The translations under genes were made by a program, and so were the position numbers. Positions 1,184-33,522 of a stretch of 43,474 bases of DNA are shown piece by piece (position 1 is the first letter of the stretch; the number at the start of each line of letters is the position of its first letter). The notes beneath the pieces are model-generated. The model was given only the letters and a program-made list of their open reading frames with translations. It was not told the origin of the DNA and made no database searches. Source of the DNA: Patescibacteria group bacterium. Its GTDB lineage: Bacteria > Patescibacteriota > Minisyncoccia > Phycocordibacterales > Zambryskibacteraceae. The stretch is taken from assembly GCA_040389345.1 (NCBI GenBank), contig JAZKAE010000003.1, positions 1-43,474 of the forward strand, written 5' to 3'.

Positions 1184-1192
1184 ATTATAACA
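1184..1192 (-). promoter_or_regulatory. Extended -10 promoter element TGtTATAAT for the recombinase gene
   Basis: The minus strand reads tcaaggggTGtTATAATaatgtgcgacATG, with 10 nt between the -10 and ATG 1173. Confidence 0.4.
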
Positions 1193-5704: not shown

Positions 5705-6652
5705 TTAGAATGGATTCTTTGCTCCACGAACCTCGAAGTGAAGGTGAGCACCGCTTGTCTTTCCGGTCATACCCACGGCACCGATGACCTGTCCTTGAGT
5801 GACCGTTTGTCCAACCACAACTTTATTCGTAGACATGTGAGCGTAGAGGGTCTGGGTGCCATTGGCATGGCTGATAACTACATATGTTCCGTATCCTCCA
5901 TTGTAGCCACCGCTTCGAGAGATGATGACCTTTCCTGTAGCCGAGGCCATGATCGGAGTCCCAACTGGCGCTCCAAGGTCAACGCCATTGTGCCCGTGGA
6001 TACCCTGAGTCTTGTGACCACCAGAGATAGGCCTCATAAAGTAGCCGGCGACAGAAGGATAGTTTGAACCAGTAGGCTTCACAGAGCCCGATGAAGCTGG
6101 AGCAGCGATCTCGCCGTCTGGGACGATGATCACATCTCCGGGCACGAGCTTATCAGACACTGCCACGTCGTTGAAAGCGAGGATATCATTGAGGTCTGCA
6201 TTGTATTTCTTGGCAATAGACTGGAGCGTATCGCCTGATTTGACCGTGTGCTTTACACCCGAGATAGGCAAGATGACGAGCTCTTGGCCTTCTTTGATCG
6301 TCGAGTTCTTTAGATCATTTGCCCACATGATGGTGTTTGTAGTCACACCGAACATCTTGGCTATGGCAGGAAGGGTATCGCCCTTTCGTACTATATATAC
6401 CGAGATCTGGCCTGTGCCTGATTTGCCTGCTTCAGTAAAGATCTCGCCCTGATCGCCTTGGGCTGAGAGAGCGCTGTTGTCTATGATCGCAAGCTTAGGA
6501 GAACTTGCAGGGACTGGAGTTGAATTTAAGTGTCCTTCAAGGAGAGCCATGGTCTGCGAATTCTTGGACTCCACAACAAGAGGAGCTCTGGAGAATTTCA
6601 CCCCCTGAGAACGTGCATGAGCAAGGATGGGGAGAGCCCCAAGAACGAACAC
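5705..6652 (-). CDS. LysM-domain M23 family metallopeptidase (peptidoglycan endopeptidase)
   Basis: Two LysM repeats (GDTLPAIAKMFGVTTNTIMWANDL and GDTLQSIAKKYNADLNDILAFNDV). M23 motifs HGHNGVDLGAPVGTPI and GAHLHFEVR are present. The start is GTG at 6652 and is uncertain (see findings). Confidence 0.88.
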   Translation of the reverse strand: MFVLGALPILAHARSQGVKFSRAPLVVESKNSQTMALLEGHLNSTPVPASSPKLAIIDNSALSAQGDQGEIFTEAGKSGTGQISVYIVRKGDTLPAIAKMFGVTTNTIMWANDLKNSTIKEGQELVILPISGVKHTVKSGDTLQSIAKKYNADLNDILAFNDVAVSDKLVPGDVIIVPDGEIAAPASSGSVKPTGSNYPSVAGYFMRPISGGHKTQGIHGHNGVDLGAPVGTPIMASATGKVIISRSGGYNGGYGTYVVISHANGTQTLYAHMSTNKVVVGQTVTQGQVIGAVGMTGKTSGAHLHFEVRGAKNPF

Positions 6653-6967
6653 GCCGACGACGATGGTCGAGCGGATAAAAGAGGCTATATAAGGGCTACG
6701 TTTTCCAAAAGAGCGGGAACTCGGAAGCCTCTTTCGGTTGGTTTTTTTAGAAATAACGTCGGGTTAAACTTTTAGATGTCAGTCGTTCGGTCGTAACTGT
6801 CGTGCTTCAGGAGTCCACCTATTATACCAATAATAGACCTAGCGCGGTACCCAAACCCATGGTCTTATTGGCGAGCGTTAGAGCCATTTTGACGTAGTTG
6901 AGCCATATTTTGGCGCTCATCTATCCTAAATCTAGAGCAGTGGCTTAACTGAGCCACAAAATAAGCA

Positions 6968-6986: not shown

Positions 6987-8951
6987 ATGAATACCGATCC
7001 TTTATCCACACTTAATGAGCGCCAGAGGGAGGCCGTCCTCACGACCGAAGGGCCTCTTTTGATCCTGGCGGGAGCGGGAGCAGGCAAAACCAAGACCATC
7101 GCCGAACGCATCAGGCACCTCGTCCGCCAAGGCACAGCTCCCTCGTCGATCCTGGCCATCACCTTCACGAACAAAGCGGCCAAAGAGATGCGAGAGAGGG
7201 TCTCCAAGATGCTTTCTGGTGACCGAGATCTGAACAAACCAGTGTCGATGAACGAACGTCCGTTCGTCTCCACCTTTCACGCACTCGGCGTCCACATAAT
7301 CAAGGAACAATCGTCAAAGCTCGGGCTCAAGCGCCACTTCACCATCTTTGACCGCGACGACTCAAAAAAAGCAGTGAAGGAAGCGCTCGAAAAACACGGC
7401 TATGATCCAAAGACCCATGATCCGAACAAGATCCTCGGCACTATCTCAAGAGAGAAAGGTAAGGGATATGAGGCAAAAGATTTTGACGGAAAAAAGGAGC
7501 GCGGACAATTCATGGATATCGTCGGGCTTGTCTGGAACGAATATGAGCGGATCCTTAAAAGAGACAACGCGCTCGACTTTGATGATCTTCTCTTGAAGAC
7601 GATGATCCTCTTGAAAACGGATGCGGCGGTGAGAAATTATTATCGAACTATCTGGGACTATGTTCACGTGGATGAATACCAAGACACGAACGGCGTACAG
7701 TATGAGATCACAAAATTATTGATAGGAGATAAGCAGAACATCTGTGTGGTGGGGGACATCGATCAAAATATCTATTCATGGCGAGGAGCAGATATCAAAA
7801 ACATCCTGGCCTTCGAGAAAGATTACCCGGAAGCCAAGGTTATACTCCTTGAAGAAAATTACCGCTCATCCAAAACAATTCTCGATGCAGCAAACGCCAT
7901 CATCGAAAAAAATAAAATCCGCCGCAAAAAAACGCTCTTCACCTCGCAGGCCCTTGGATCAAAGATCGGGATATTTCAGGGATTCGATGAAGTAGCCGAA
8001 GCTGAATTTATCGCCACAAAAACTGAAGACCTCATCAAGAAGGGCTCTGATCCTTCCGAGATCGCCGTACTCTACAGAGCGAACTTCCAATCTCGCGTAC
8101 TTGAAGAAGCCTTCATGCAACACAGGTTGCCGTATCAGCTCCTTGGGACAAAATTCTTTGAACGTAGAGAAATTAAAGATATCCTTTCATACCTTAAAGC
8201 CGCACTCAATCCAGACTGTCTCGCAGATGTGAAGCGGGTGATCAATGTCCCTGCAAGGGGGATAGGCAAGACCACCATAGCCAAGCTCTTCTCTGGATTC
8301 GATGAAGGGATCACAAGCGCCACCAGAAAAAAGATCGACGACTTTTATGAATTACTCAAAGCGATCAAACTCTCTGCAGAAACAAACCCTCCGTCGCAGA
8401 CCATTGCGACCATTATCCTTACGTCGGGCCTTGAGAGGGAATGGAAGGAGGGCAAAGCTGAAGACCAAGAACGCCTTGAGAATGCGTACGAACTCGCAGC
8501 CTTTGCAGGCAGGTACGACAGCCTTACGCCCCTTGAAGGCATCGAGTCGTTCCTCGGTGATGCGGCTCTACAGAGCGATCAGGATGAGATGAAAGAAGAG
8601 CAGAAAGCCGTCCGTCTCATGACCGTCCACGCATCCAAGGGACTTGAGTTTGATCATGTGTTCATCTCAGGCCTTGAAGACGGACTATTCCCACATCAAA
8701 AAGTGACCAGAGAAAACATCTCCCCCGAGGAAGCAGAAGAGGAAAGGCGTCTGTTCTATGTGGCTGTCACGCGAGCGCGGAAAAAAGTATTCCTCTCGTA
8801 TGCTCAAGTGCGTATGATCTTTGGCCAAAGAGAAGTAAATGTCCCTTCAGAATTCGTCTTCGATATCCCTGAGGAACTGACAGAGGAGGAAACGTATGAT
8901 GAAGAGAACAGCTGGCGCCGAAAGCCGCTTCTTGATATACCTTTTGACTAG
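6987..8951 (+). CDS. pcrA: ATP-dependent DNA helicase, UvrD/PcrA family
   Basis: 654 aa. SF1 motifs AGAGAGKTKT, HVDEYQDTN, VHASKGLEF and YVAVTRARK are present. Confidence 0.92.
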   Translation: MNTDPLSTLNERQREAVLTTEGPLLILAGAGAGKTKTIAERIRHLVRQGTAPSSILAITFTNKAAKEMRERVSKMLSGDRDLNKPVSMNERPFVSTFHALGVHIIKEQSSKLGLKRHFTIFDRDDSKKAVKEALEKHGYDPKTHDPNKILGTISREKGKGYEAKDFDGKKERGQFMDIVGLVWNEYERILKRDNALDFDDLLLKTMILLKTDAAVRNYYRTIWDYVHVDEYQDTNGVQYEITKLLIGDKQNICVVGDIDQNIYSWRGADIKNILAFEKDYPEAKVILLEENYRSSKTILDAANAIIEKNKIRRKKTLFTSQALGSKIGIFQGFDEVAEAEFIATKTEDLIKKGSDPSEIAVLYRANFQSRVLEEAFMQHRLPYQLLGTKFFERREIKDILSYLKAALNPDCLADVKRVINVPARGIGKTTIAKLFSGFDEGITSATRKKIDDFYELLKAIKLSAETNPPSQTIATIILTSGLEREWKEGKAEDQERLENAYELAAFAGRYDSLTPLEGIESFLGDAALQSDQDEMKEEQKAVRLMTVHASKGLEFDHVFISGLEDGLFPHQKVTRENISPEEAEEERRLFYVAVTRARKKVFLSYAQVRMIFGQREVNVPSEFVFDIPEELTEEETYDEENSWRRKPLLDIPFD

Positions 8952-8952
8952 C

Positions 8953-9726
8953 ATGTATCCAAAAAAGTCACTCGGCCAGCACTTCTTAACTTCAACCGGC
9001 GCGATCGAAGATATTTTGGATGCGGGGGATGTGACCGGAGATGATCAGATCCTTGAGGTAGGACCTGGGAAGGGAGTATTGACTGAGAAGCTCATTGAAT
9101 TCGCAGACAAGGTCATCGCCATAGAAAAGGACAGAGACCTTATCCCGCTTCTTGAAGAAAAATTTGCTAAAGAGATCAAGAAAGGAAAAATATCGATCCT
9201 TGAACAAGACATCCTCGAATTTGATCCGAGCACGATCCAAGGGGAGTACAAACTCATCGCTAACCTTCCGTACTACATCACAGGTCAATTTATCAGGAAG
9301 TTTTTAGAAACAGAATTTCAACCTGAACGCATGGTGCTCATGCTTCAAAAAGAAGTAGCCGAGCGCATCGCTCGCAGTGAGAAAGAGAGTATCCTCTCCA
9401 TTTCAGTTAAAGCTTACGGTACGCCGTTCTATATAAAGACAGTAAAGGCTGGATCATTCTTTCCTGCGCCGAACGTCGACTCAGCGATCCTCGCTATCAA
9501 CGATATTTCCAAAGAGTTTTTCAAAGGATTCACTGAAGAGCACTTTTTCACCCTCCTCCACGCAGGGTTTCAATCTAAACGAAAGAAGTTGTCGTCGAAT
9601 TTGTCAGCCGTAGCTCCCAAAGAGAAGGTGAAGGAAGTGTTTCTGAGCCTGGCTCTTGATGACAACACCCGAGCCGAAGATCTCAGCCTCGAAAACTGGA
9701 GAAAAATAGCTATTGCTCTGGTATAA
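8953..9726 (+). CDS. rsmA: 16S rRNA (adenine1518/1519-N6)-dimethyltransferase RsmA/KsgA
   Basis: SLGQHFL, EVGPGKGVLT (SAM site) and NLPYYIT are present. The start is set at ATG 8953, directly after the pcrA stop (8949-8951), not at the upstream in-frame 8896. Confidence 0.9.
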   Translation: MYPKKSLGQHFLTSTGAIEDILDAGDVTGDDQILEVGPGKGVLTEKLIEFADKVIAIEKDRDLIPLLEEKFAKEIKKGKISILEQDILEFDPSTIQGEYKLIANLPYYITGQFIRKFLETEFQPERMVLMLQKEVAERIARSEKESILSISVKAYGTPFYIKTVKAGSFFPAPNVDSAILAINDISKEFFKGFTEEHFFTLLHAGFQSKRKKLSSNLSAVAPKEKVKEVFLSLALDDNTRAEDLSLENWRKIAIALV

Positions 9727-9727
9727 T
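9719..9727 (+). promoter_or_regulatory. Perfect extended -10 (TGgTATAAT) heading the T4SS-like operon
   Basis: ctcTGgTATAATttgggttaATG. The element overlaps the rsmA stop codon (9724-9726) and lies 8 nt before ATG 9736. Confidence 0.45.
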
Positions 9728-9735
9728 TTGGGTTA

Positions 9736-10497
9736 ATGAATCGCCCGCGAGTCTATATCGCTCTTTCTATATCCTTGCTTCTTATTATTGGAGCTGGTTG
9801 GTTTAGATATTCTTCTCTTCACAAAGCTACGCAAGCGGGATTAATAGCCATAAACCAAGATTCAGTAGGATCGACTCAGGATTATAACCAGGTCATCACT
9901 GATTACATCACCTCCTCTAGTGCCTCCACCACCCCCGTCCTTTCTCAAAGTGACATGCTGGGTCGCGAGTTGATCCTGGATTATGTTGATCTTGCCACCA
10001 GTGGCAAGGCGAATGATGAAAGTGTTAAAGCTTTGGCGAATAAATATCTAGACAAAGTTCCTTCTCTTAACCAATCCGATACTATAAAGATAGGGGATAT
10101 CCAAACAACCTTCAACAACAAGGCTACGTTGCAAACATATACAAATAGTTTTGGTAAGATCGAAAGAGACTATGCAAACCGTATTAACATGGCTTCAAGC
10201 AAAAGTCCGAGCACGTCGATCGACTCCACCAAGTTTTCAAATATCAGTAGTGCGTACCATGACGCAGCGATCGCCCTTAAAGGACTGATCGTGCCCATAG
10301 CGGTCTTGCCCCAACATATCAAACTTATAAATTCATATCTCTCAAGTGCAGCAGCTACCAAAGCGTTATCCGAAGCAGACAAAGATTCATCTTCAGCCTT
10401 TGCTGGTATAATTGCGTTGAAGACGAACATTGATGTTGAAGCTTCTCTCGTGCAGGACATTGGTCAAATTTTGACACAAAATGGAATCAAGATTTAA
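9736..10497 (+). CDS. Hypothetical N-terminally anchored protein, first gene of the T4SS-like operon
   Basis: 253 aa with an N-terminal TM helix (VYIALSISLLLIIGAGWF). It overlaps the next gene by 17 nt. No recognisable family. Confidence 0.6.
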   Translation: MNRPRVYIALSISLLLIIGAGWFRYSSLHKATQAGLIAINQDSVGSTQDYNQVITDYITSSSASTTPVLSQSDMLGRELILDYVDLATSGKANDESVKALANKYLDKVPSLNQSDTIKIGDIQTTFNNKATLQTYTNSFGKIERDYANRINMASSKSPSTSIDSTKFSNISSAYHDAAIALKGLIVPIAVLPQHIKLINSYLSSAAATKALSEADKDSSSAFAGIIALKTNIDVEASLVQDIGQILTQNGIKI

Positions 10498-11866
10498 ACA
10501 CGCTCTAGCAAAAAAATCCGTCATTTTTCTCCTTTTGGTGTCGGTTGTTTCTTCGACCCTCTACGCTCCTCTCTTTGCTCCAAAGGCCAAGGCCTTATTC
10601 GGAATAGGGGACTTCGGGGTCACCATCGATGTGAAGGCCCTCCTCAGAGAGATCGCGGATGGAGCAGCCATGATCCTGGCCCAAAAGATGATCGACGATA
10701 TTGTGAAATCGACCATCACCTGGGCAAACAATGGATTCAACGGAAACCCTGCATACATCACGAATCCGGGGAGATTCTTTACAAACATTGCAGACAAAGC
10801 AGCAGGCAGCTTTATCCAAGGTTCTGATCTGGGGTTTATGTGTTCTCCATTCCAAGATACGGTGAGGCTTTCTTTGGCCCTCCAGTACTATCAACCTCCG
10901 GAAGATCTCTACCAATGCAGTATCACCGGCATAAAAGGTAACATTGAGAATTTCTACAATGATTTTTCTGCCGGCGGATGGGATGCCTGGTTCTCGATGA
11001 CCCAGACCCCTACAAATAACCCGTACGGAGCGTATCTAACCGCCAAAGTTGATCTGGATTCTCGAATCGCAAGTGCGATCGACCAAGCTCACAATGAAGC
11101 AAACCAGAACCAAGGCTTCTTGAACCTCAAGGAATGTGCGGTCAACAACCCTCCTCAAGATGTGATCGACGCGTACGAAACAGGGGACTTTACTAAATAT
11201 ACTGATCCAAAGATCCAGCAAGCTGCCCGAGACATCGGTAGTGGCAAAACTCCTTATGATCCAACCTTGCCAGCAGGAGCTTGTATCAAAGACGGTCCGA
11301 TCAAAACAGCAGGAAATACTATCAAGGCTCAATTGGACAACGTTCTTCCATCTGGCCTCAGTAAACTGGTTACCTTAAACCACGTCGAGCAGCTGGTCGG
11401 CGCCTTCGCCAGCGGACTCTTGAACAGGTATGTCTTCGGGAACAAGGGAACATTTTCGTCTGGATATGCAGACTACCTGAGCACTTCAAACGCTCCAGCT
11501 ATGACAAACCCGGAGACTGGGGGGACGCCCCCTCCATTAGGAGGCTCAACGACCACTAGCCCGTTCTTGTCCTGTACTGGGGGACCAGCCCAAGCTACGA
11601 TCAATGGAGGTACCTCTGATCCTGTCACTTGGACCTATGCAGGTAATTTTGGCCAAGCCATCGACAACTCTTCTGTTCACTGGACCTTTGACCCCGACGC
11701 CAGTGAAATTGGGACAAGCGGCAACAGCTCTACAGTGGTCTATTCAACTCCAGGATCAAAACAGGCTGTAGTCACTGTTGCGAGCTCTAACCTCGACTTC
11801 GTCTACGCGAACTGTCTCAATATAGTGACCGTCACCGCATCCTCGGCGACAACTACAGGACAATAA
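10481..11866 (+). CDS. Exported protein of unknown family with a C-terminal PKD/Ig-like segment
   Basis: 461 aa with a signal/anchor (KKSVIFLLLVSVVSSTLYAPLFAPKAKA). The C-terminal VHWTFDPDASEIGTSGNSSTVVYSTPGSKQAVVTVASSN looks PKD-like by eye. Confidence 0.6.
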   Translation: MESRFKHALAKKSVIFLLLVSVVSSTLYAPLFAPKAKALFGIGDFGVTIDVKALLREIADGAAMILAQKMIDDIVKSTITWANNGFNGNPAYITNPGRFFTNIADKAAGSFIQGSDLGFMCSPFQDTVRLSLALQYYQPPEDLYQCSITGIKGNIENFYNDFSAGGWDAWFSMTQTPTNNPYGAYLTAKVDLDSRIASAIDQAHNEANQNQGFLNLKECAVNNPPQDVIDAYETGDFTKYTDPKIQQAARDIGSGKTPYDPTLPAGACIKDGPIKTAGNTIKAQLDNVLPSGLSKLVTLNHVEQLVGAFASGLLNRYVFGNKGTFSSGYADYLSTSNAPAMTNPETGGTPPPLGGSTTTSPFLSCTGGPAQATINGGTSDPVTWTYAGNFGQAIDNSSVHWTFDPDASEIGTSGNSSTVVYSTPGSKQAVVTVASSNLDFVYANCLNIVTVTASSATTTGQ

Positions 11867-11867
11867 A

Positions 11868-13982
11868 ATGAAGAAATTTTTCTCACGCACGATCGCATCG
11901 CTCCTGGTAATCACTTTTATTTTTAGCATTGGAGTTGCGCCAATATTAGTACACGCACAGTCTAATCCTCCGTGTACGGACGGACAGAAACAAGCAAGTG
12001 ATGGAAAATGTTATGCCCCAGGAACAAAGGCGGCAGACGCTGCCGGAGTTACCAACAGCGACAACGTAAACAGCCTCAGCTGTGCACTGCCCCAAAACTG
12101 GATCTCTTGCGGACTTACGTATATCGCAAACGCTGTCCTTGGACTTTCAGCATTACTCACTGGTATTGGAGGTACCATTTTAAACTTTGTGGTGCTGAAG
12201 ACGGTCATACAGATGAAAATAAACTATCCAAAAACGGTTATCGACAGCGCTTGGACAACCATCAGAGATATCGCGAACATGGGATTTATTTTCGTGCTCC
12301 TCTATACAGCGATCCTTACCATCTTTGGACAAGGGAAGTACAGGCAAACGATAGTCAACATCATCATTGCGGGAATTTTGGTGAACTTCAGCCTGTTCTT
12401 TACCAAGTTTGTCATCGATGTAGCAAACCTGATCGCGATCACGTTCTACAACGCGATCGCTCCGGGAGCTGCAAACTCGACCATCGGCATTTCAGACGCA
12501 TTTATGCAGGCCATGCATGTGACCAGCCTCTATAAAGCAGCGGGCACCATCAACTCAGTGAACATCATCTCCATTGGAGTACTCGGATCGATCGTCCTCA
12601 TCATCGCAGCGTTTATTTTCTTTGCTATCTCGATCATGTTCGTCGTTCGCTACGTGGTACTTATCTTTGTACTCATATTTTCTCCGATCTACTTTGTATC
12701 CATGGTCCTGCCTGGTCTTGGAAGTTACAAAAAGCAGTGGGAGCAGGCACTCACCGGACAAGCATTCTTTGCCCCGGTCTATTTCATGATGACCTGGGTC
12801 ACCCTTAAGGTATTTAATGGCATCTCAGACAGTCTTTTCCCTCAGATAAAAAATATGGATGCCACTAAGGCGTTCGGGACAGTAAATGCAGCCGCAGGAG
12901 TCACTGGTTACTTTAGCGGTCTAATAGAAATGCTTGTCGGATTCGCTATCCTCATTGGATTCCTTATCCTTTCACTTATTGTTTCAAAAGGTGTTGCAGA
13001 CAGCTCCGGGAAGGGGGTCTCCAAACTCACAAGTTTTGCGACAGGAGCGGTTATGGGGGCAACCGCTGGAGCTGGACGCAGAACATTGGGCAGAGCAGGT
13101 CAAGCACTTAGCGAGAATGAGTACCTCAAATCTAAAGCTCCTGATAGTAGGTTGGCCCGACTTGCTCTGGGCGCCGCTAATAAATCTGCGGGAGCCACTT
13201 TTGATGTTCGCGGTACGACCCGTGGAGGCCTTGCTGGTGGTGGTAAGGCGGGAGGCAAGGGTGGATTTGCCAAGATGGCTAAGGACAGTGCCGATGCTGA
13301 AAAGGAGTATGCAGACAAAACCTTCAAGCCGTCTGATCTTGTGGTGGCAAGCGCAGAAGCAGAGCTAAAAGCAGCACAGAAAATTCCCCTTACTGATCCT
13401 GAAAGAGACAGCAAAATTGCTAAAGCTCAAGCAGATGTTGATAGGTTGAAAGGTGCAGATGAAGGAGAGATGAGAAAGAGAAAAGCACGAGAATTAAGAC
13501 TTGCTGATCCAACACTTACCGAAAAAGAGGCTCGAAAACAAGTTCAGAAACTTGAAGATCAGCACTTTAGCGAAGTTGCAACTCTCATGAAGAGTGGAAT
13601 GACAGAAGATGATGCAAAGAAAAAAGTTAAAGAAAGAAGGGAAGCAGGAGAGAATGTAGGTTGGAATCCTGAAGAGATAAAGAGCAATGCAAACGATAGA
13701 AAGGAGAGGTATGCGAAGGGGATCGCTGAACAGAAAACGTTTGGCATGAATGCAGATCTCACAGGACGTCATCTCATTTTTGGACCAGTTAAAAGAGAAA
13801 GGAAGCTTGAAGCACTTGCTATACGCAAAAGCATGAAGGAGAAGAGCAATAAGGATAAAATAGCAGAAGCGGCATCAGCAATGGCCAAGGAAGACAGCGA
13901 CAAAGATGACACAGCACCGGCAGCAGCTCCGGCCGGAGGCGCACCAGCTGGAGGAACACCCCCCTCAACACCAAAACCATAA
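11868..13982 (+). CDS. VirB6/TrbL-like polytopic membrane protein with a long charged C-terminal tail
   Basis: 704 aa. It has a signal peptide (..ILVHAQS) and about 7 hydrophobic helices between residues ~80 and 380. The last ~270 aa form a K/E/A-rich tail ending AAPAGGAPAGGTPPSTPKP. Its position upstream of the PrgI-like and VirB4 genes is as in Gram-positive T4SS modules. Confidence 0.6.
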   Translation: MKKFFSRTIASLLVITFIFSIGVAPILVHAQSNPPCTDGQKQASDGKCYAPGTKAADAAGVTNSDNVNSLSCALPQNWISCGLTYIANAVLGLSALLTGIGGTILNFVVLKTVIQMKINYPKTVIDSAWTTIRDIANMGFIFVLLYTAILTIFGQGKYRQTIVNIIIAGILVNFSLFFTKFVIDVANLIAITFYNAIAPGAANSTIGISDAFMQAMHVTSLYKAAGTINSVNIISIGVLGSIVLIIAAFIFFAISIMFVVRYVVLIFVLIFSPIYFVSMVLPGLGSYKKQWEQALTGQAFFAPVYFMMTWVTLKVFNGISDSLFPQIKNMDATKAFGTVNAAAGVTGYFSGLIEMLVGFAILIGFLILSLIVSKGVADSSGKGVSKLTSFATGAVMGATAGAGRRTLGRAGQALSENEYLKSKAPDSRLARLALGAANKSAGATFDVRGTTRGGLAGGGKAGGKGGFAKMAKDSADAEKEYADKTFKPSDLVVASAEAELKAAQKIPLTDPERDSKIAKAQADVDRLKGADEGEMRKRKARELRLADPTLTEKEARKQVQKLEDQHFSEVATLMKSGMTEDDAKKKVKERREAGENVGWNPEEIKSNANDRKERYAKGIAEQKTFGMNADLTGRHLIFGPVKRERKLEALAIRKSMKEKSNKDKIAEAASAMAKEDSDKDDTAPAAAPAGGAPAGGTPPSTPKP

Positions 13983-13984
13983 AC

Positions 13985-14509
13985 ATGGACACTAACAAAC
14001 TTATCGAGGAGCAACACAAAACACTAGACCCTGCCCTGCAAGAGGCTCTTACTAACATCCCTTGGAAAAACACTGTACGAGAAATTGCACGGGGTAATGA
14101 TCTCACTAAGGAACAAGCTGAAGCGCTGGAAAGAGAGGTGATGTTTGTTATGTATTGTTTTGAAGAACCTGAAGATTTTCAAAAGAATGTAGTTTCAGAA
14201 GTTGGCGTTGATGCGTTGAAAGCAAAGATCCTCGACAGCAAGATAAGCGATCTCGTATTCAATCCAGTGTTGACCAAGATGGAAGAATTTAAGAAGAACC
14301 ATCCGCAAGAAAAGGCGTCGGCACTCATCGACCTCTCTAAGCAGCTTGAGATAGAACCACCTAAGGTGGATGAGATGATCGAAATAGGTACGCACACTGC
14401 TCACACCACTCCTCAGGTCATCCAGATAAAAAAGCCAACATTCGAAAAGCCTGCGCCTCACACAGAATATAAGGGCGCGCCAGATCCATACAGAGAGCCT
14501 TTAAACTAG
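13985..14509 (+). CDS. Hypothetical acidic soluble protein (T4SS-like operon)
   Basis: 174-aa ORF starting 2 nt after the upstream stop. No TM helix and no recognisable motif. Confidence 0.5.
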   Translation: MDTNKLIEEQHKTLDPALQEALTNIPWKNTVREIARGNDLTKEQAEALEREVMFVMYCFEEPEDFQKNVVSEVGVDALKAKILDSKISDLVFNPVLTKMEEFKKNHPQEKASALIDLSKQLEIEPPKVDEMIEIGTHTAHTTPQVIQIKKPTFEKPAPHTEYKGAPDPYREPLN

Positions 14510-14526
14510 TGTAAACTAGAAAGAGT

Positions 14527-14946
14527 ATGAGATTTCAAGTTCCACAATTCATCGAGGTGGAGGATAAGATATTCGGACCTTTCACCTTCAAGCAGTTCAT
14601 CTACTTGGCCGGGGGAGCGGGGATATGCGCCGTCCTCTTCACTCTGCTTCCGCGGTTCATCGCCTTCTTCCTCTCAGTTCCTGTGGCGATCTTCGCTCTG
14701 TGTCTCGCATTTTATAAAGTGAACGAGAAGCCGTTCGCTGAAGTGGTCGAGGCCTTCCTCGCCTATACGTTCGGAGGCAAGCTCTACATTTGGAAAAAAG
14801 AAGACAAGGTTCCTGTGCCCAAAGAAGAAGCTTCCAAAGCCCCGCTTCAGCAGGTCTATGTGCCAAAACTTTCTCAATCCAAACTAAAAGACCTGAGCCT
14901 CGCGCTCGACATCAACCCCGCAGAGAACCCAAACGATCACCAGTAG
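14527..14946 (+). CDS. PrgI-family (VirB3-like) two-TM protein
   Basis: MRFQVPQFIEVEDKIFGPFTFKQFIYLAGGAG is followed by two TM helices. This matches the N-terminal signature of the PrgI family of Gram-positive conjugation systems, and the gene sits just upstream of virB4. Confidence 0.7.
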   Translation: MRFQVPQFIEVEDKIFGPFTFKQFIYLAGGAGICAVLFTLLPRFIAFFLSVPVAIFALCLAFYKVNEKPFAEVVEAFLAYTFGGKLYIWKKEDKVPVPKEEASKAPLQQVYVPKLSQSKLKDLSLALDINPAENPNDHQ

Positions 14947-14959
14947 AACAAAGATAGGC

Positions 14960-14965
14960 TATAAT
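14960..14965 (+). promoter_or_regulatory. Internal -10 hexamer TATAAT, 6 nt before ATG 14972
   Basis: aggcTATAATacacacATG. Confidence 0.35.
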
Positions 14966-14971
14966 ACACAC

Positions 14972-15613
14972 ATGGCAGAGAGTTCGAACTCCACTCAAAG
15001 TTTTGTACCCATAAAAGAAGTACGTGACGGCATCCTTATCTTGAAGGAGGGCGGCATGCGCGCCATCTTGATCGCTTCATCCCTCAACTTCTCTTTGAAG
15101 GCCGAGGATGAGAAGAACGCGATCCTTTTTCAGTTTCAGGATTTCCTGAACTCCCTCGATTTCTCAGTCGAGATCATCATCCAATCCAGGAAGCTTGATA
15201 TACGCCCATACATAGCCCTTTTGGAAGAACAGGAGAAGAAGCAGGTAAACGACCTTATGAGAATACAGACCGCCGAATATATCCAGTTCATCAAAAGCTT
15301 CACTGAGGGCACGAACATCATGACCAAGCAATTCTTTGTGGTCGTGCCGTATTCTCCGGCAACCATTAATCCAAGCAAGGTTTCTGGCCTCGGTTCACTA
15401 TTTGGCTCTAAAACTGCAAAGGAGAAGGTGTCTATATCTGATGCGGTGTTTGAGGAGAACCGCACCCAGCTCGAACAAAGAGTGTCCGTGGTAGAGCAGG
15501 GATTGATCCGAACAGGGATCCGTGTGAAGCGCTTGGACACAGAAGCAGTCATCGAGCTTTTCTATAAGGCATTCAATCCAGGGGAGACAGAAAAACCACT
15601 TAAAGCAAACTAA
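14972..15613 (+). CDS. Stand-alone protein resembling the N-terminal (non-ATPase) domain of VirB4
   Basis: 213 aa. SFVPIKEVRDGILILKEGGMRAILIASSLNFSLKAEDEKNAILFQFQDFLNSL..VEIIIQSRKLD follows the pattern I associate with Gram-positive VirB4/TrsE N-termini. There is no Walker motif. This is a by-eye call. Confidence 0.45.
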   Translation: MAESSNSTQSFVPIKEVRDGILILKEGGMRAILIASSLNFSLKAEDEKNAILFQFQDFLNSLDFSVEIIIQSRKLDIRPYIALLEEQEKKQVNDLMRIQTAEYIQFIKSFTEGTNIMTKQFFVVVPYSPATINPSKVSGLGSLFGSKTAKEKVSISDAVFEENRTQLEQRVSVVEQGLIRTGIRVKRLDTEAVIELFYKAFNPGETEKPLKAN

Positions 15614-15615
15614 AT

Positions 15616-17439
15616 ATGAGCATCTTCGATAAATTATTAGGAAAAGAAGAAAAGAAGCCAGATATCTCTTCGATATTGCCCCAAGAGATCTTCCAGGCAG
15701 GGATACTCGAGCTCAAAGACATCATCGCCCCAAGCGCCTTGAAGATCAGCCCAAAGGAGCTCAACCTCGGAGAAAAGATCGTCCGCAGCTTCTTTGTGAT
15801 CTCATACCCCAGGTTCCTCTCGGAATCCTGGTTCTCTCCGATCATCAACATGGACAAGGTGTTTGACGTCTCGATCCACGTGCATCCTGTTGAGACCTCA
15901 AAGGTCCTGCGCCAATTTCAGAAAAAGGTTGCCGAGGTGCAAAGCCAGATCCACACCAGAGAAGAGAAGGGGCTCGTCCGCGACCCTATGCTCGATGTGG
16001 CCTATCAGGACCTTGAGAATCTGCGTGACCAGCTCCAGCAAGCCCAGGAAAAGCTCTTTGATGTGGGACTCTACATCACGATCTATGCAGATTCTGATTC
16101 TGAGCTCGACAAGGTGGAGTCCGAGATCAAATCTATCCTCGAGGCCAAGCTCGTATATCTGAAACCTGCACTCTTTCAGCAAGAACAAGGGTATAAGAGC
16201 ACGCTTCCCATGGGAGAAGACCAGCTCAATGTCCACTCTAAGTTGAATTCTTCTCCGCTCTCATCACTCTTCCCATTCACCTCATTTGACCTGACCGACA
16301 ACAAAGGCATCCTCTATGGGATCAATAGGCACAACTCGTCCCTTGTGATCTTTGACCGATTCTCTTTGGAGAACTACAACTCGATCATGTTCGCAAAGTC
16401 TGGAGCCGGCAAATCGTATGCAACAAAGCTTGAGATCTTGCGTACCCTTATGTTCGATACAGATGTGATCGTGATCGACCCAGAGAGGGAATACGAGTAT
16501 ATGGCCGAAGCCACTGGAGGCAGATACTTCAAGATCTCACTGAACTCTGAGCACCACATCAATCCATTTGACCTTCCTCTGCCGGGACCGGACGAATCCG
16601 GTGCAAACGTGCTTCGCTCAAACATCATTAACCTCGTTGGGCTCTTTCGTTTGATGATGGGAGGTCTCACGCCTGAAGAAGATGCGATCATCGACCGAGC
16701 GATCACTGAAACCTATGCCTTGAAAGACATCACTGCAGATTCTGACTTCGCATCCATTGAACCTCCCCTTATGTCTGACTTTGAACTCGTGCTCTCGGGA
16801 CTTGAGGGAGGAGAATCGCTCGCCCAGCGCCTTACCAAATACACCAAAGGTACGTGGGCCGGATTCATCAACAAACCGACGAACGTGGACATCAACAGAA
16901 AGTTTGTTGTCTTTTCTCTCCGCGATATGGAAGATGAGCTGAAGCCAATAGCCATGTACATCGTCACTCACTATATCTGGAACGCTGTTCGCAAAGAGCT
17001 CAAGAAACGCCTCCTTGTCATCGATGAAGCATGGTGGATGATGAAATCTGAGGACACCGCCTCATTCCTCATGGGCCTCGTGAAAAGAGGGCGCAAGTAT
17101 TACCTCGGCGTGGCTACGATCACTCAGGACGTCGGTGACTTCTTGAAGAGCCCATATGGTCTTCCTATCATCACCAACTCTTCGATCCAGATACTTCTGA
17201 AGCAGTCACCGACCACGATCGACAACCTGCAGCAAACCTTTAACCTAACGGATGAAGAAAAGTATCTTCTGCTTGAATCAGATGTGGGGGAGGGAATCTT
17301 CTTTGCCGGCCTTAAGCATGTGGCCATAAAGAACATCGCCTCATACACAGAGGATCAGATCATCACCTCAGATCCATCTCAGGTCCTGGCACAAAAGCGA
17401 GCGCGGCAAGAATCGGCCCAAGGCAAAAATCCAGCTTAA
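15616..17439 (+). CDS. virB4: Type IV secretion ATPase, VirB4/TrsE/PrgJ family
   Basis: 607 aa. Walker A FAKSGAGKSYATK, VIVIDPEREY, INPFDL, Walker B LLVIDEAWWMM and GRKYYLGVATITQDVGDF are present. Confidence 0.9.
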   Translation: MSIFDKLLGKEEKKPDISSILPQEIFQAGILELKDIIAPSALKISPKELNLGEKIVRSFFVISYPRFLSESWFSPIINMDKVFDVSIHVHPVETSKVLRQFQKKVAEVQSQIHTREEKGLVRDPMLDVAYQDLENLRDQLQQAQEKLFDVGLYITIYADSDSELDKVESEIKSILEAKLVYLKPALFQQEQGYKSTLPMGEDQLNVHSKLNSSPLSSLFPFTSFDLTDNKGILYGINRHNSSLVIFDRFSLENYNSIMFAKSGAGKSYATKLEILRTLMFDTDVIVIDPEREYEYMAEATGGRYFKISLNSEHHINPFDLPLPGPDESGANVLRSNIINLVGLFRLMMGGLTPEEDAIIDRAITETYALKDITADSDFASIEPPLMSDFELVLSGLEGGESLAQRLTKYTKGTWAGFINKPTNVDINRKFVVFSLRDMEDELKPIAMYIVTHYIWNAVRKELKKRLLVIDEAWWMMKSEDTASFLMGLVKRGRKYYLGVATITQDVGDFLKSPYGLPIITNSSIQILLKQSPTTIDNLQQTFNLTDEEKYLLLESDVGEGIFFAGLKHVAIKNIASYTEDQIITSDPSQVLAQKRARQESAQGKNPA

Positions 17440-17444
17440 CCATC

Positions 17445-17783
17445 ATGGGAAGCAAAATTTCTAACGCAGAGTGGGGACTCTTGGTCGGAGCCCTTGCAAC
17501 AATAGACCTGGCACAAGTTGTGCTAGATGTATTTGCTATTGGCCTTGTGGCCAACCGCATCATTGATCTTACTGTGGTGATGGCCCTCCCTCTATATTTA
17601 ACCTTTCGAGGTTTTAAACTAGATACCGAGACTATGCTACTTATCGGTGGATCATTTTTGGCAGAAGAAATACCAGTTGTGGACGCTGCGCCTTTTTGGA
17701 GCCTTGTGGGATGGAGGCTTTGGCAAATAGACAAACGGAGAAAAGCGGAAGCAGACCAAACTCCTGATGAAAACAGGCTATAA
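17445..17783 (+). CDS. Small hydrophobic membrane protein (T4SS-like operon)
   Basis: 112 aa with 2-3 hydrophobic helices and a basic C-terminus. No named family. Confidence 0.55.
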   Translation: MGSKISNAEWGLLVGALATIDLAQVVLDVFAIGLVANRIIDLTVVMALPLYLTFRGFKLDTETMLLIGGSFLAEEIPVVDAAPFWSLVGWRLWQIDKRRKAEADQTPDENRL

Positions 17784-17790
17784 TAAAAAG

Positions 17791-18498
17791 ATGAAAACTA
17801 AGGGCTTTCTACTTTTGATCCTTTCTCTCTGTGTCGCATCCTTTGCACACGCACAAGCAATACCAGGAGATGTGGACCTTTTGTGGCAGGGAACGGGATA
17901 TACCCCAAGCTTCTATAAAGGAAGAGATCTGTGGGCAACACAAGGGCAAATAGTTTTTACTGCCATTCCGCATGTGAGTGGAGGTTCCGTTATCTATAGA
18001 TGGAGAAAGAACGGGGAAGTGCTTGGCAGCGTTTCTGGAACAGGCCGCAACTCTCTTACGCTCGCTGATTCAATATTTTCAAAACCCATAACCGTGGGAG
18101 TTGAGATCGTCGATGCAAACGATTCTGTTCTTGCTGAAAGGTCGGTCACGTTGGTTCCCCGAGCTCCTAAACTACTTATATATGAGGATAATCCTCTTTA
18201 CGGACTCATGACCCACCATGAAGTCGGGGCATCGTTTGTACTCCGAGAACGAGAGGTGTCCTTTGCTGCAATCCCGCTTTTCTTTAGCGTTCATTCAAGA
18301 GATTCTGAGTTTCTCAAGTATTCGTGGACTAATAATGGATCGGTCCTCGCACAGAACGGAAACCGCGTCACCTTTAGGACACCGGACGGCGAAGGAGAAG
18401 CGGCCATCGATGTACAAGTAAAAAATACTAACAAGATCGCTCAGGACACCTCGGACCTCTTTACGGTACAATTTGGCAGCCAAGAACCAAACATTTAA
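17791..18498 (+). CDS. Secreted protein with two tandem beta-rich repeats
   Basis: The start is set at ATG 17791, after the upstream stop at 17781-17783. Signal peptide MKTKGFLLLILSLCVASFAHAQA. There is an internal duplication (YRWRKNGEVLGSVSGTGRNSLTL versus YSWTNNGSVLAQNGNRVTF). Confidence 0.6.
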   Translation: MKTKGFLLLILSLCVASFAHAQAIPGDVDLLWQGTGYTPSFYKGRDLWATQGQIVFTAIPHVSGGSVIYRWRKNGEVLGSVSGTGRNSLTLADSIFSKPITVGVEIVDANDSVLAERSVTLVPRAPKLLIYEDNPLYGLMTHHEVGASFVLREREVSFAAIPLFFSVHSRDSEFLKYSWTNNGSVLAQNGNRVTFRTPDGEGEAAIDVQVKNTNKIAQDTSDLFTVQFGSQEPNI

Positions 18499-19503
18499 AT
18501 GAAAACATTTCTCTTATCACTCCTTATCGCGACGTCTTTCTTTGGATTTAGCCTTGCTCATGCAGCCGCTCAAACCACTCCTTCGGATACGAATGGCACT
18601 GATTATCATCTTCTCTCAGGCTCGATACCCAACATTAGCGACTCGACTGGTAAAACAAACCTTGCAACGTTTATCCCAGGACTTATTAAACTTATCATCG
18701 GCCTTGCTGGAGCACTTGCGGTGATCCAGATCGTCATCGGAGGCTTCCAATACATCATGACAGAAGCGGTAGGAGGGAAGTCGAGCGCTAAAGACACCAT
18801 TCAAAATGCGATCATAGGACTCCTTCTTGCCATCGCCTCGTATACTATCCTCTACACCATAAACCCGCGACTCGTAGAACTTAATCTGAAGCTCGAGTAT
18901 CAAGGGGCGACTCAGGCCACAGATCTTTCGGTTGGAGGAATAGGAAATATCCCAGGAGGAGACATCGATGATGTACCTGCAAGCCAAGGGATTCCTCCTG
19001 GAGCAAGCGCTAATAAGTCCTGGCCACCGGATAATAATGTTCGTAGTAACTTTGCAAAAAACACAAATGGGTTGATTACTTTTAATCATCCAGGTCAACC
19101 CGGTTGTGCCACGATTGGCCAACAGAACTGTACCTCAGTAGCGGGTATAAGCACAGCAGTACAAACCGGTCTTTCACAGCTAGCGATAGATTGTAAGTGC
19201 TCAATTGAAATAACAGGAGGTACTGAATATTGGCTTCACGGAAATAGATCAACCGAATTAACCGGTCCCACAGCCAATAAAACGGCTCATAAATCAGGAG
19301 GACGGGTGGTGGACATATCTTTGTATACACCGGTTAGCCAATACATACGAGCAGAAGGGGAGGTGATAAAATCTGGAGATAAATCTGGAGATAATTGTGT
19401 TAAGTTCGCCTCTGGTCCCGAACGATATCAAATAGGCAACGGACTCTACGTTAATGAAAAAATAGCTGGAAATGATCCACATTGGCATGTCTGCTTTAAT
19501 TAA
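18499..19503 (+). CDS. T4SS pilin-like (VirB2/TrbC-like) two-helix domain fused to a putative LAS/M15-type zinc peptidase
   Basis: Signal peptide ..FSLAHAAAQ. FIPGLIKLIIGLAGALAVIQIVIGGFQYIMTEAVGGKSSAKDTIQNAIIGLLLAIASYTILYTINP resembles the CPR pilin-like family. The C-terminal part carries AHKSGGRVVD and a terminal DPHWHV (H..D plus HxH zinc-ligand pattern). Confidence 0.6.
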   Translation: MKTFLLSLLIATSFFGFSLAHAAAQTTPSDTNGTDYHLLSGSIPNISDSTGKTNLATFIPGLIKLIIGLAGALAVIQIVIGGFQYIMTEAVGGKSSAKDTIQNAIIGLLLAIASYTILYTINPRLVELNLKLEYQGATQATDLSVGGIGNIPGGDIDDVPASQGIPPGASANKSWPPDNNVRSNFAKNTNGLITFNHPGQPGCATIGQQNCTSVAGISTAVQTGLSQLAIDCKCSIEITGGTEYWLHGNRSTELTGPTANKTAHKSGGRVVDISLYTPVSQYIRAEGEVIKSGDKSGDNCVKFASGPERYQIGNGLYVNEKIAGNDPHWHVCFN

Positions 19504-20709
19504 ATGAATAAAAAACCTCTCATCATCACCATATCGGTCGCTCTTCTCATCATCCTCGGAGCAGTAGGATGGTATTTCTATACACGATCAGCGACTCCGG
19601 ATGAATTGATCCCGGTTAACGGAGGGCTGCCTTTCGGGGCAGGATCAGGAAACCTCTCTCCCGGCACTCCAGGAGGGGAGACATCGTCAAACCCTACCTT
19701 GGGTGAGAATGGCAAGCCAACAGCCAAGCTTTTCCGCATCTCGGATGTCCCTGTCGGTGGTTTTGTGAGCTTCCTCAAGGGAGGTTTTACCTACGTTCGC
19801 TATATCGATCGAGCCACTGGACATATTTATGATGTGAACCCTGCTACCTTGGAAAAGATCCAGGTGACCAACAACACCATGCCAAAGATCTATGAAGCGT
19901 ACTTTAAAAGCGATGCTTCGGGCGCGGTAGTACGCTCGATCAAGGACGGAAGCGATACGATAGACAACATGATCCTCACTCTCACTCCACCAAAAGCAAC
20001 CTCGACCGCAGCTCTTTACACCGTCGGCTCAGCACTTCTACGGGGAGCAATAGGGGAGGTAACTGTCGCCACGGACAACACGCTTTTATACACCACAAAC
20101 GATACTGGTTCGATCATTCGTTCAACCTTTAGCGCCGATAAGCCAGTCTCCCTCTTTACCTCAGCCTTCACCGACTGGAGACTCTCACCAAGCGGCATTG
20201 TCACCACTAAAGCAAGTGCTGGAGTACTCGGATACTCATATGTATTAGGGGCCAAGGGTGGACTTACAAAGATACTCGGCCCGCTTGATGCTCTTGTGGT
20301 CCTCCCGAACAAAGACAATAAGCGCATCGCGTATTCATATAGAGACGCCGAAGGCGCTGTGCTTAGGGCTCTGAACACTACCACCAAATCCGCAGTAGAC
20401 ATCGTCCCAAGCACCCTTTCTGAAAAATGCTCTTGGAGCACGAAGCTGCCAGACACACTGTACTGCGGGGTACCGACCGGCGGGGTAGGGGCAAGCGAGC
20501 CTGACTCTTGGTATCAAGGTTCTACCCACTTCTCAGACCGCATCTGGAGATTCAACACAGCGACTGGATTTACAGACGTACTGGTTGACCCAAAGAAGGA
20601 TCTGAATGTCGAAATCGACATAGAAAACCCGACGCTCTCGCCGGATGAGGATTATCTCGTATTCATGAACAAGAACGACCTGACAGTGTGGACACTGAAG
20701 CTCAACTAA
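19504..20709 (+). CDS. N-terminally anchored protein, possibly TolB-like beta-propeller
   Basis: 401 aa with TM helix LIITISVALLIILGAVGWYFY and a Gly/Pro-rich linker. The C-terminal LSPDEDYLVFMNKNDLTVWTL resembles PD40/TolB-type repeats (weak). Its stop overlaps the convergent yidC stop. Confidence 0.55.
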   Translation: MNKKPLIITISVALLIILGAVGWYFYTRSATPDELIPVNGGLPFGAGSGNLSPGTPGGETSSNPTLGENGKPTAKLFRISDVPVGGFVSFLKGGFTYVRYIDRATGHIYDVNPATLEKIQVTNNTMPKIYEAYFKSDASGAVVRSIKDGSDTIDNMILTLTPPKATSTAALYTVGSALLRGAIGEVTVATDNTLLYTTNDTGSIIRSTFSADKPVSLFTSAFTDWRLSPSGIVTTKASAGVLGYSYVLGAKGGLTKILGPLDALVVLPNKDNKRIAYSYRDAEGAVLRALNTTTKSAVDIVPSTLSEKCSWSTKLPDTLYCGVPTGGVGASEPDSWYQGSTHFSDRIWRFNTATGFTDVLVDPKKDLNVEIDIENPTLSPDEDYLVFMNKNDLTVWTLKLN

Positions 20710-21793: not shown

Positions 21794-21928
21794 TTAGACG
21801 GTGAGCTTGGCTCGGCCCTTGCGGCGGCGAGCTTTGACGGTCCTTCGGCCTCCGGTAGTCTTGGCACGCTTCCTAAACCCGTGGGCTCGGGCGCGCTTTC
21901 TCTTTTTTGGCTGGTATGTAGTAGACAT
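21794..21928 (-). CDS. rpmH: 50S ribosomal protein L34
   Basis: Own translation (below the ORF-track cut-off) gives [44 protein letters not shown], the classical L34 sequence. GAGAGG lies upstream. Confidence 0.92.
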
Positions 21929-33513: not shown

Positions 33514-33522
33514 TGATATAAT
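33514..33522 (+). promoter_or_regulatory. Extended -10 TGaTATAAT upstream of tsaE
   Basis: gtagTGaTATAATgcacatatatATG. It lies 10 nt before ATG 33533 and overlaps the upstream in-frame ATG 33521, which is therefore unlikely to be used. Confidence 0.4.

Follow-up and report, generated by a model that had tools for sequence, protein, structure and literature searches.

Chromosomally encoded type IV secretion systems (T4SSs) of Patescibacteria are the closest described counterparts of the locus analyzed here. In Southlakia epibionticum, a member of the Saccharibacteria, the T4SS encoded by SEML1_0006-0019 was essential in transposon sequencing (Tn-seq) and was needed for epibiotic growth (Wang et al., Cell 2023; PMC10633639). 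This system resembles the conjugative systems of Gram-positive bacteria, includes essential pilins, is without a recognisable coupling protein or relaxase, and has its core arranged in the order VirB6-like protein, PrgI, hypothetical protein, VirB4, and hydrolase (PMC10633639). A survey of the phylum (Quinonero-Coronel et al., Microb Genom 2025; PMC12102498) recovered a monophyletic VirB4 clade related to MPF-FATA, reported TrsD, VirB3, VirB6, and VirB2 homologs adjoining virB4 across Patescibacteria together with almost no relaxases, and placed these systems near dnaA, dnaN, rnpA, ksgA, and rpmH, with Paceibacteria named explicitly. A 2025 FEMS review described the Patescibacteria T4SSs as newcomers to the superfamily, speculated that T4SS and pilus form a conduit for host exchange or uptake, and pointed out that this is the first T4SS reported to be essential for its own bearer, its substrate and direction of transport being still unsolved (PMC12857230). 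Here, we analyze a T4SS-like gene cluster in a window of 43,474 bp, which is one whole contig (JAZKAE010000003.1) of an NCBI metagenome-assembled genome (MAG) of a Patescibacteria group bacterium, our view of the genome extending over that contig alone.

The cluster comprises eleven intact open reading frames (ORFs) on the + strand at 9736-20709 (g1 to g11), which are co-directional and tightly packed, with gaps of 0-25 nt or overlaps; the coordinates, junctions, and overlaps listed for them in the original prediction were all correct. It is very probably a member of the published Patescibacteria kind. A VirB4 with Walker motifs and an adjoining PrgI/VirB3 protein identify it as a T4SS, and an origin-side location, a TrsD homolog next to virB4, and a VirB2-like pilin gene place it in the Patescibacteria clade. 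Like the described systems, it is chromosomal, lies beside dnaA, dnaN, rnpA, ksgA, and rpmH, contains neither a relaxase nor a type IV coupling protein (T4CP), keeps the core order VirB6-like, PrgI, TrsD-like, and VirB4 with exported proteins after it, includes a pilin module of the VirB2-like type, and shares a monoderm MPF-FATA ancestry. The existence of a chromosomal, origin-adjacent, relaxase-less T4SS was already published between 2023 and 2025, and the window is a further example. The statement in the original prediction that such machines are uncharacterised is out of date, the same conclusions having been reached in PMC10633639 (2023), PMC12102498 (2025), and the review PMC12857230.

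Several differences from the described systems are nevertheless evident. S. epibionticum encodes six shorter pilins (genes of 312-558 bp) and two VirB6-like genes, whereas the window has one 334-aa pilin-module protein with a globular C-terminal domain and one VirB6-like gene. No NTF2/VirB8-like protein or lysozyme-type hydrolase was recognised here, and g1, g2, g4, and g11 are without described counterparts in the published Patescibacteria T4SSs. The lineage also differs, the window being parcubacterial while the genetic data come from Saccharibacteria. Taken together, we consider it likely that the cluster is the Parcubacteria/Paceibacteria version of the chromosomal Patescibacteria T4SS, that is, a monoderm MPF-FATA module of the CD1110 type that lost its DNA-processing partners and is now a vertically inherited core organelle beside the origin.

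Cytoplasmic motor and membrane core

The VirB4-type ATPase g7 (15616-17439) belongs to the CD1110 family; its match to NCBIfam conju_CD1110 spans profile positions 185-736 and scores 392 bits, the cutoff being 325. Pfam added P-loop_TraG (2.5e-25) and AAA_10, and the Walker A and B motifs are present. Upstream of it in the core, g5 (14527-14946) is a PrgI/VirB3-like protein with two transmembrane (TM) helices and a Pfam PrgI match well above threshold (E 1.2e-10, 42.2 bits against a cutoff of 27). Both calls had been made from the DNA alone in the original prediction and are borne out by these profile scores, and the strings quoted there for Walker A and B, for GRKYYLGVATITQD, and for the N-terminus of the PrgI-like protein are all present. 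The best identity of g7 to VirB4 proteins of Firmicutes/Actinobacteria plasmids is about 34%, and a lookup of its exact sequence returned no record.

The ORF between these two, g6 (14972-15613), which earlier had been left without a name, can now be described from NCBIfam as a TrsD-like, separately encoded N-terminal domain of VirB4. Its matches cover VirB4_plasma (Mbov_0397 family) at positions 99-233 (E 6e-12), CD1110 at positions 2-119 (E 7.8e-5), and the TrsD/TraD model (E 6.6e-6), all of them below the respective whole-protein cutoffs. The g7 protein is without the first ~184 positions of the CD1110 profile, part of which (2-119) is supplied by g6. Because g6 matches N-terminal VirB4 profile positions that are absent from g7, the two proteins together are, as judged from these profiles, a split VirB4 arranged as trsD-trsE of pSK41. 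Further matches to g6 came from tblastn, with full-length homologs on 341 plasmid records, most of them from Firmicutes (E values as low as 1e-18; 226 of the 341 typed non-mobilizable and 281 from Bacillus) and with weak pSK41 TrsD matches (E about 1) that fall on the g6 gene of relatives. Direct hhalign comparisons of g6 with the N-terminus of VirB4 from the window's own clade and with pSK41 TrsD were not significant, the alignments being of low diversity (Neff 1.9).

The polytopic protein g3 (11868-13982; locus tag V4465_00295) is probably VirB6-like. It combines a predicted signal peptide with ~6 TM segments and a charged cytoplasmic tail of ~300 aa, and in hhalign it matched a 779-aa protein that occupies the VirB6 position in a T4SS of Pontibacillus, with a probability of 92% (E 5.5e-7). 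The same g3 motif aligns weakly to a TrbL-family protein of pSK41, Pfam TrbL falls just below cutoff in two g3 homologs, and NCBI calls one homolog "TrbL/VirB6." The window protein itself has no Pfam or NCBIfam match. A PF19590 label that is precomputed on some g3 homologs was absent when two of them were rescanned with Pfam and was set aside. The VirB6/TrbL-like assignment with a signal peptide thus has moderate support from hhalign and topology.

These assignments allow a comparison with the MPF-FATA systems, namely those of pSK41/pGO1 (trsC-trsD-trsE), Clostridioides difficile CTn2 (CD1110 type), and pCF10 (prgH-prgI-prgJ-prgK). The window shares with them a CD1110-family VirB4, the g5-g6-g7 order of PrgI/TrsC, TrsD, and VirB4 that is identical to trsC-trsD-trsE of pSK41, a polytopic VirB6-like protein upstream, and the absence of a VirB7/9/10 outer-membrane core. 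The proposed resemblance to Gram-positive conjugation modules holds for the core order, trsC-trsD-trsE with the VirB6-like gene upstream, while the wall hydrolase that had been placed at its end is unproven. In contrast to the MPF-FATA systems, the window cluster is chromosomal, vertically inherited, and origin-proximal, its VirB4 is only ~24-34% identical to theirs, and it contains no T4CP, relaxase, oriT, topoisomerase, or single-stranded DNA-binding protein and no VirB1-type hydrolase of the CHAP/SLT type.

The most significant VirB4 match outside Patescibacteria (34%, E 2e-104) lies on the megaplasmid of Pontibacillus sp. ALD_SL1 (NZ_CP062975), the one example locus on which the comparison with Firmicutes megaplasmids is based. 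This locus encodes a pilin-like protein (Mbov_0395 family), a large polytopic protein, a small PrgI-sized protein, a g6 homolog (E 1e-18), a CD1110 VirB4, and a peptidoglycan metalloendopeptidase. Unlike the window cluster, it is plasmid-borne, its pilin is short, and its hydrolase is a separate protein of 1,050 aa. Homologs of g2 and g11 are missing from the Firmicutes megaplasmid T4SS-like loci, and tblastn of g2, g3, and g11 against plasmids gave no match. The Pontibacillus module (352-361 kb) is situated between chemotaxis and flagellar genes, with no relaxase annotated in the 18.6 kb that were covered.

Conservation and vertical inheritance

Relatives of the window VirB4 at 78-93% identity occur in at least 590 species-level Patescibacteria genomes, the nearest being taken, from their informative labels, as Parcubacteria, Zambryskibacteria, Taylorbacteria, or Paceibacterota and not as Saccharibacteria. 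Median identities to the window proteins reveal a pronounced gradient among the related loci, which were themselves picked by VirB4 similarity: 81% for VirB4, 62% for g6 (over 77 loci), 61% for DnaA, 55% for UvrD, 54% for PrgI (found in 76 of 80 loci), 50% for RsmA, 47.5% for DnaN, and about 30% for g1, g2, g3, g4, g9, and g11. The cytoplasmic and membrane core is thus highly conserved, while the exposed parts are ~30% identical, with g2 and g10 swapping their C-terminal domains. To judge from these identities, strong purifying selection acts on VirB4, g6, and PrgI in at least 80 species-level genomes.

The order uvrD, rsmA, cluster, yidC, rnpA, dnaA, and dnaN was kept in all 43 loci that have full 10-kb flanks. 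This observation is further strengthened by the co-variation of T4SS-gene identity with the identity of flanking core genes (Spearman rho 0.6-0.8, P-value down to 1e-10). GC content and GC at third codon positions (GC3) of the cluster are unremarkable, in agreement with the earlier remark that its composition resembles that of the flanking core genes, and no direct repeats of 18 nt or longer bracket the cluster. Vertical inheritance, as originally proposed, is supported because synteny is fixed, divergence parallels that of core genes, composition is normal, repeats are absent, and the only recombinase is Xer-like; neither patchy presence nor a compositional anomaly was seen. On the grounds of synteny, co-divergence, the lack of repeats, and the Xer type of the recombinase, an integrative and conjugative element (ICE) was rejected. 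The claim that the cluster has no adjacent integrase or flanking repeats accordingly stands for the repeats and needs qualification for the integrase, a tyrosine recombinase of the XerC/XerD-like kind being present in the window at a distance of 8.5 kb.

The absence of a local DNA-processing module is likewise supported. Searches by tblastn with the T4CP of pSK41 and two relaxases found none in the window or in 80 related loci (~10 kb around virB4), the pSK41 VirB4 control being positive in 81 of 81, and the larger ORFs of the window gave no Pfam or NCBIfam match to a T4CP or relaxase. The prediction that no coupling ATPase or relaxase lies nearby is supported to this extent. Its further step, that the machine is non-conjugative, agrees with the lack of local DNA-processing genes, although one 43-kb contig cannot prove it.

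A single pilin-module protein and other exposed components

What may be new in this lineage is a clade-specific, single long pilin-module protein with swapped C-terminal domains of at least 28 types. In the window, this protein is g10 (18499-19503), with 334 aa; its signal peptide is followed by a VirB2-like pilin hairpin (aa ~55-121), which a disordered linker connects to a Cys-rich C-domain (aa ~165-334). Pfam T4SS_pilin (PF18895) falls just short of its cutoff of 26.6 in the window protein, with 25.0 bits, and it is recorded in most g10 homologs, which NCBI names "pilin." The AlphaFold2 (AF2) model, with a predicted local distance difference test (pLDDT) score of 81 overall and above 90 in the C-domain, contains a helical hairpin at aa 55-121. 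A hidden Markov model (HMM) of the pilin module detected a single such gene per locus in 64 of 69 related loci; the proteins have a median length of 312 aa, and 60 of 74 reach at least 250 aa. When compared by BLAST, the regions that follow the pilin module in 65 proteins form 28 clusters. The window type, with an H..D..HWH pattern, occurs in 24 loci and a second type, "CHKFGSCVDV...EHYSV," in 12 loci, and among the others are one CHAP/NlpC-like domain (6.6e-4), one with an HEIVH motif, and many long coiled coils. Such pilin-module fusions are not mentioned in the survey PMC12102498, nor are they described in the literature that was searched.

Within the C-domain of g10, H264, D272, and H330 are invariant and H328 is nearly so across 53 homologs, the last two forming H328-W-H330. 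The spacing H-x7-D in g10, and H-x6-D in the orthologs L006 and L077, produces a LAS/M15-like pattern, and these two orthologs show weak Peptidase_M15_4 matches (20-22 bits against a cutoff of 25), with no such match in the window protein. This C-domain, with its H-x7-D and H-x-H residues and the weak M15_4 matches of the orthologs, is the sole candidate in the cluster for a VirB1-type wall hydrolase. A PDB sequence-profile search gave no match to it, and Foldseek against PDB and BFVD returned nothing below E 1e-3, long helices dominating the lists. An assignment to the LAS/VanY peptidases was examined and rejected, in that no fold match was obtained and the C-domain HMM misses the genuine VanY domains of two pilin-VanY homologs. 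The proposed pilin/peptidase fusion accordingly has moderate support in its pilin half from PF18895 (marginally), the homologs, and the AF2 hairpin, and is unconfirmed in its peptidase half, given two negative fold searches and the missed VanY domains.

The other exported proteins are of a surface type, and g2, g9, g10, and g11 each have an N-terminal hydrophobic signal or anchor segment. The exported or anchored surface protein g2 (10481-11866; locus tag V4465_00290) has a Cys-rich helical N-domain (~aa 50-320) and a C-terminal beta-sandwich of the immunoglobulin (Ig)/PKD-like kind. Its AF2 model (pLDDT 72) matched Ig/PKD folds in Foldseek through the C-terminal domain only (E about 2e-3). 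Orthologs of g2 end in Ig-like, F5/8-type-C, or PKD domains, and homolog lengths range from 306 to 806 aa; the N-domain is kept, while the C-terminal adhesin-type domains are swapped. This N-domain of ~270 aa, with invariant W81, G85, P90, C121, P123, C146, W167, W170, and C219, was found in more than 200 Patescibacteria proteins of widely differing length and has no Pfam, PDB-sequence, or Foldseek match.

The secreted protein g9 (17767 or 17791-18498, the start at 17791 giving a canonical signal peptide) carries tandem Ig-like beta-sandwich domains. It is present in 77 of 80 loci, its orthologs have weak Ig_3, PKD, and BiPBP_C matches, and the protein itself has a weak PDB-profile match to the Ig-like domains of T4 Hoc (6.5e-4). 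The last gene product, g11 (19504-20709), is membrane-anchored by a TM segment, was found in 62 loci, and is probably a beta-propeller, as suggested by weak matches of its orthologs to DPPIV_N (5 of 29), PD40, and DUF5050; it has no PDB match.

Three small accessory genes complete the cluster. The first, g1 (9736-10497), encodes a bitopic 253-aa protein, anchored by a TM helix at its N-terminus and largely helical in its extracytoplasmic domain; the protein fits VirB8 in size and topology. Orthologs of g1 were detected by tblastn in 14 loci at 23-36% identity, and no credible Pfam, NCBIfam, or PDB match was obtained. The cytoplasmic protein g4 (13985-14509; 174 aa, no TM segment) has as its sole invariant feature across 18 orthologs a C-terminal D-P-Y-R-E motif reminiscent of a docking peptide, and g4 matches no PDB entry or family. 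The small membrane protein g8 (17445-17783; 2-3 TM segments) is conserved in position after virB4, given that a + strand ORF with at least two TM-like segments occurs between virB4 and g9 in 51 of 71 loci, with sequence similarity detectable in 10 loci only. Overall, PDB sequence-profile searches of g6, the g10 C-domain, g3, g2, g11, g1, and g4 yielded chance-level matches only.

Promoter-like elements and genomic context

An extended -10-like element, TGGTATAAT, is located at 9719-9727 on the + strand, where it overlaps the rsmA stop codon, as had been noted, and lies 8 nt before the ATG of g1. A second TGGTATAAT at 10404-10412 (+) falls within g1, 69 nt upstream of the g2 start, and is a possible internal promoter. 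Five copies of the pattern TGNTATAAT are present in the window, where 0.78 would be expected; none of 100 shuffles reached this number, and all five are just upstream of a gene in the correct orientation. Because of this excess and because every copy precedes a gene, the TGGTATAAT/TGNTATAAT element is plausibly a real promoter type. No -35 match was found at 9719-9727, and a generic sigma-70 scan gave no excess of promoter-like sites. A promoter at this position would make the g1 mRNA leaderless. Since uvrD, rsmA, and g1 are contiguous (9-nt gap), read-through from upstream into the cluster is equally possible, and the transcription unit may begin farther upstream. Three TGNTATAAT copies, at 1184-1192 (-), 9719-9727 (+), and 33514-33522 (+), are at most 9 nt from, or overlap, the first in-frame start codon of the Xer recombinase, g1, and tsaE, respectively, which suggests either leaderless mRNAs or mis-set start codons.

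The cluster is flanked by uvrD-rsmA upstream and by yidC-rnpA-rpmH-dnaA-dnaN downstream, with rpmH at 21794-21928 (- strand) and dnaA starting at 22026. The cumulative GC skew has its minimum at ~24-25 kb in the window, and DnaA-box-like 9-mers are enriched (21 against 7.5 expected), three of them in or near the dnaA-dnaN spacer; the skew minimum and this enrichment make it reasonable to call the cluster origin-proximal. Housekeeping genes upstream are comM (4.6 kb from the cluster), an M23/LysM peptidase gene, uvrD, and rsmA, so that the context originally described, with rsmA upstream, rpmH/dnaA just downstream, and comM about 4.6 kb upstream, is confirmed by gene identification. Farther downstream are genes for a class A penicillin-binding protein, tyrS, yebC, ruvB, a PilB/GspE-type type IV pilus ATPase, tsaE, and polA; the ATPase is the "lone pilB-like ATPase" noted about 10 kb downstream, which is indeed present and is a type IV pilus protein rather than VirB11.

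Two further genes of the surroundings merit mention. The XerC/XerD-like tyrosine recombinase (217-1182, - strand) is separated from the cluster by 8.5 kb on the upstream side; its best NCBIfam match, XerD, has 238 bits and does not reach the equivalog cutoff. A LysM-LysM-M23 peptidoglycan endopeptidase (5705-6652, - strand) is divergent from the cluster, ~3 kb upstream of it, and has its own TGGTATAAT at 6821-6829; M23/LysM proteins are included among the VirB1-like candidates of the phylum survey (PMC12102498). The block from uvrD to g11 (6987-20709) is entirely on the + strand and to the left of the apparent origin, and its transcription would therefore be head-on to replication. At the other end, g11 and yidC are convergent, with stop codons that overlap by 4 nt (20706-20709).

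Proposed working and alternative explanations

As regards assembly, complex topology, substrate, and host-contact role, we infer the following working from the components. The split VirB4, with g6 as its N-terminal domain and g7 as the ATPase, would be the cytoplasmic motor and would dock on the membrane through the PrgI/VirB3 protein g5 and the VirB6-like polytopic channel g3, with g1 and g8, both small membrane proteins, and the cytoplasmic g4 as putative accessories. The motor would assemble or energise an extracellular part composed of g10 together with g2 (helical and Ig/PKD domains), g9 (tandem Ig-like domains), and g11 (propeller-like), and this part would touch the wall or a partner cell's surface. 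The substrate would most probably not be relaxase-bound DNA; proteins or other molecules moving across the envelope at a cell-cell or cell-surface interface are the more likely cargo. Non-conjugative transport at a host or surface interface is the function that we favour, with a likelihood only slightly better than even.

Several points weigh against this interpretation and against the reading of the cluster as a non-conjugative core organelle. Searches of Pfam, NCBIfam, and PDB profiles gave a VirB8, PrgL, or NTF2 signal in none of the cluster proteins, and the wall-hydrolase assignment failed two fold searches of the g10 C-domain. The choice of loci by VirB4 similarity biases the ranking of VirB4 against DnaA, and single pSK41 queries by tblastn are an insensitive means of finding divergent T4CPs or relaxases. 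A T4CP or relaxase could also be encoded elsewhere, since one contig was seen and VirD4-like genes are often far from virB4 in Patescibacteria (PMC12102498). Finally, essentiality and host contact are extrapolated, by analogy, from one species of Saccharibacteria.

Among the alternatives, the one that fares best, though unlikely, is a housekeeping device for envelope biogenesis or adhesion, whose task would be to export surface proteins of the cell itself, or a pilus-like adhesin, and to display them, with no intercellular transfer involved. The exported surface-type nature of g2, g9, g10, and g11, with their Ig/PKD, propeller, or pilin modules, agrees with such a device, as do the position of the cluster next to yidC and a motor more conserved than DnaA, as expected for a core cellular function. 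However, the signal or anchor segments of these four proteins indicate that they probably follow the Sec/YidC route and not the T4SS, the rapid divergence and domain swapping of the exposed parts suggest a variable external partner, and the Saccharibacteria system has been interpreted as a host-interface machine (PMC10633639).

Somewhat less probable still is a DNA-uptake machine like Helicobacter ComB or archaeal Ced, importing environmental or host DNA for nucleotides or for transformation. The Helicobacter pylori ComB and archaeal Ced systems are, like the cluster, VirB4-containing, relaxase-less, and not conjugative, and weak matches of g7 to the CedB (3.1e-9) and CedD (0.016) models, far below cutoffs, point in the same direction, as do comM 4.6 kb upstream, the lack of de novo nucleotide synthesis in Patescibacteria (PMC10633639), and the T4SS of class ABY1 that adjoins comF, recG, and radA (PMC12102498). 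The CedB match, however, is limited to the generic P-loop region (residues 439-508), so that similarity to CedB/CedD is sub-threshold and of the P-loop only; Ced has its own components and ComB a diderm VirB7/9/10 core. Moreover, comM is a common housekeeping neighbour, and the window contains neither comEC nor comF. Published genetics speak against the ComB-like import role that had been suggested, given that competence in S. epibionticum depends on type IV pili and ComEC, and that deletion of comEC abolishes transformation and not viability, while the T4SS is essential (PMC10633639; PMC12857230).

A functional conjugation or chromosome-mobilising apparatus, with its coupling protein and relaxase elsewhere in the genome or too divergent to be seen, is improbable to a similar degree. 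Conjugative ancestry through the CD1110 family, a genome view limited to one MAG contig, and the VirD4-like proteins reported in 2,918 Patescibacteria genomes, in most cases at a distance from virB4 and accompanied by few relaxases (PMC12102498), leave room for it. Against this, the search of ~10 kb around virB4 in 80 genomes revealed neither a T4CP nor a relaxase, just 103 of several thousand genomes have a relaxase (PMC12102498), S. epibionticum can dispense with its distant t4cp homolog but not with its T4SS (PMC12102498), and strict origin-proximal synteny with core-gene co-divergence is unlike a mobile element. A decaying, non-functional remnant of an integrated conjugative element, for which the DNA-processing genes missing by tblastn from the window and the 80 loci could be cited, is highly improbable and largely refuted by the conservation data, considering the eleven intact ORFs, the apparent strong purifying selection on VirB4, g6, and PrgI, the invariant synteny, and the essentiality of the Saccharibacteria homolog (PMC10633639).

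Returning to a vertically inherited T4SS that works at a host or surface interface, we tentatively put forward a more specific suggestion for g10, with the chances leaning against it. The single pilin-module protein may have replaced the array of short VirB2 pilins, its conserved hairpin serving to anchor or polymerise the protein. The C-domain, exchanged between species, comes in at least 28 unrelated types (among them two zinc-site-like domains of the H..D..HxH pattern, one resembling CHAP/NlpC, one with HExxH, and extended coiled coils) and may act as a polymorphic "warhead," enzymatic or adhesive and specific to the host, that is carried on a pilus or stalk and breaches or grips the partner envelope. 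If this were true, the split VirB4 motor, with its conservation above that of DnaA, would single the machine out as a core organelle that the lineage cannot do without. Overall, the Parcubacteria version of the system is characterised by a fixed place beside the origin, a motor more conserved than DnaA, and exposed parts that diversify by domain swapping. A conserved motor combined with diversifying exposed parts is the pattern of a machine facing a variable partner, and the C-terminal domains of g10 together with g2 are the parts most likely to carry host specificity.

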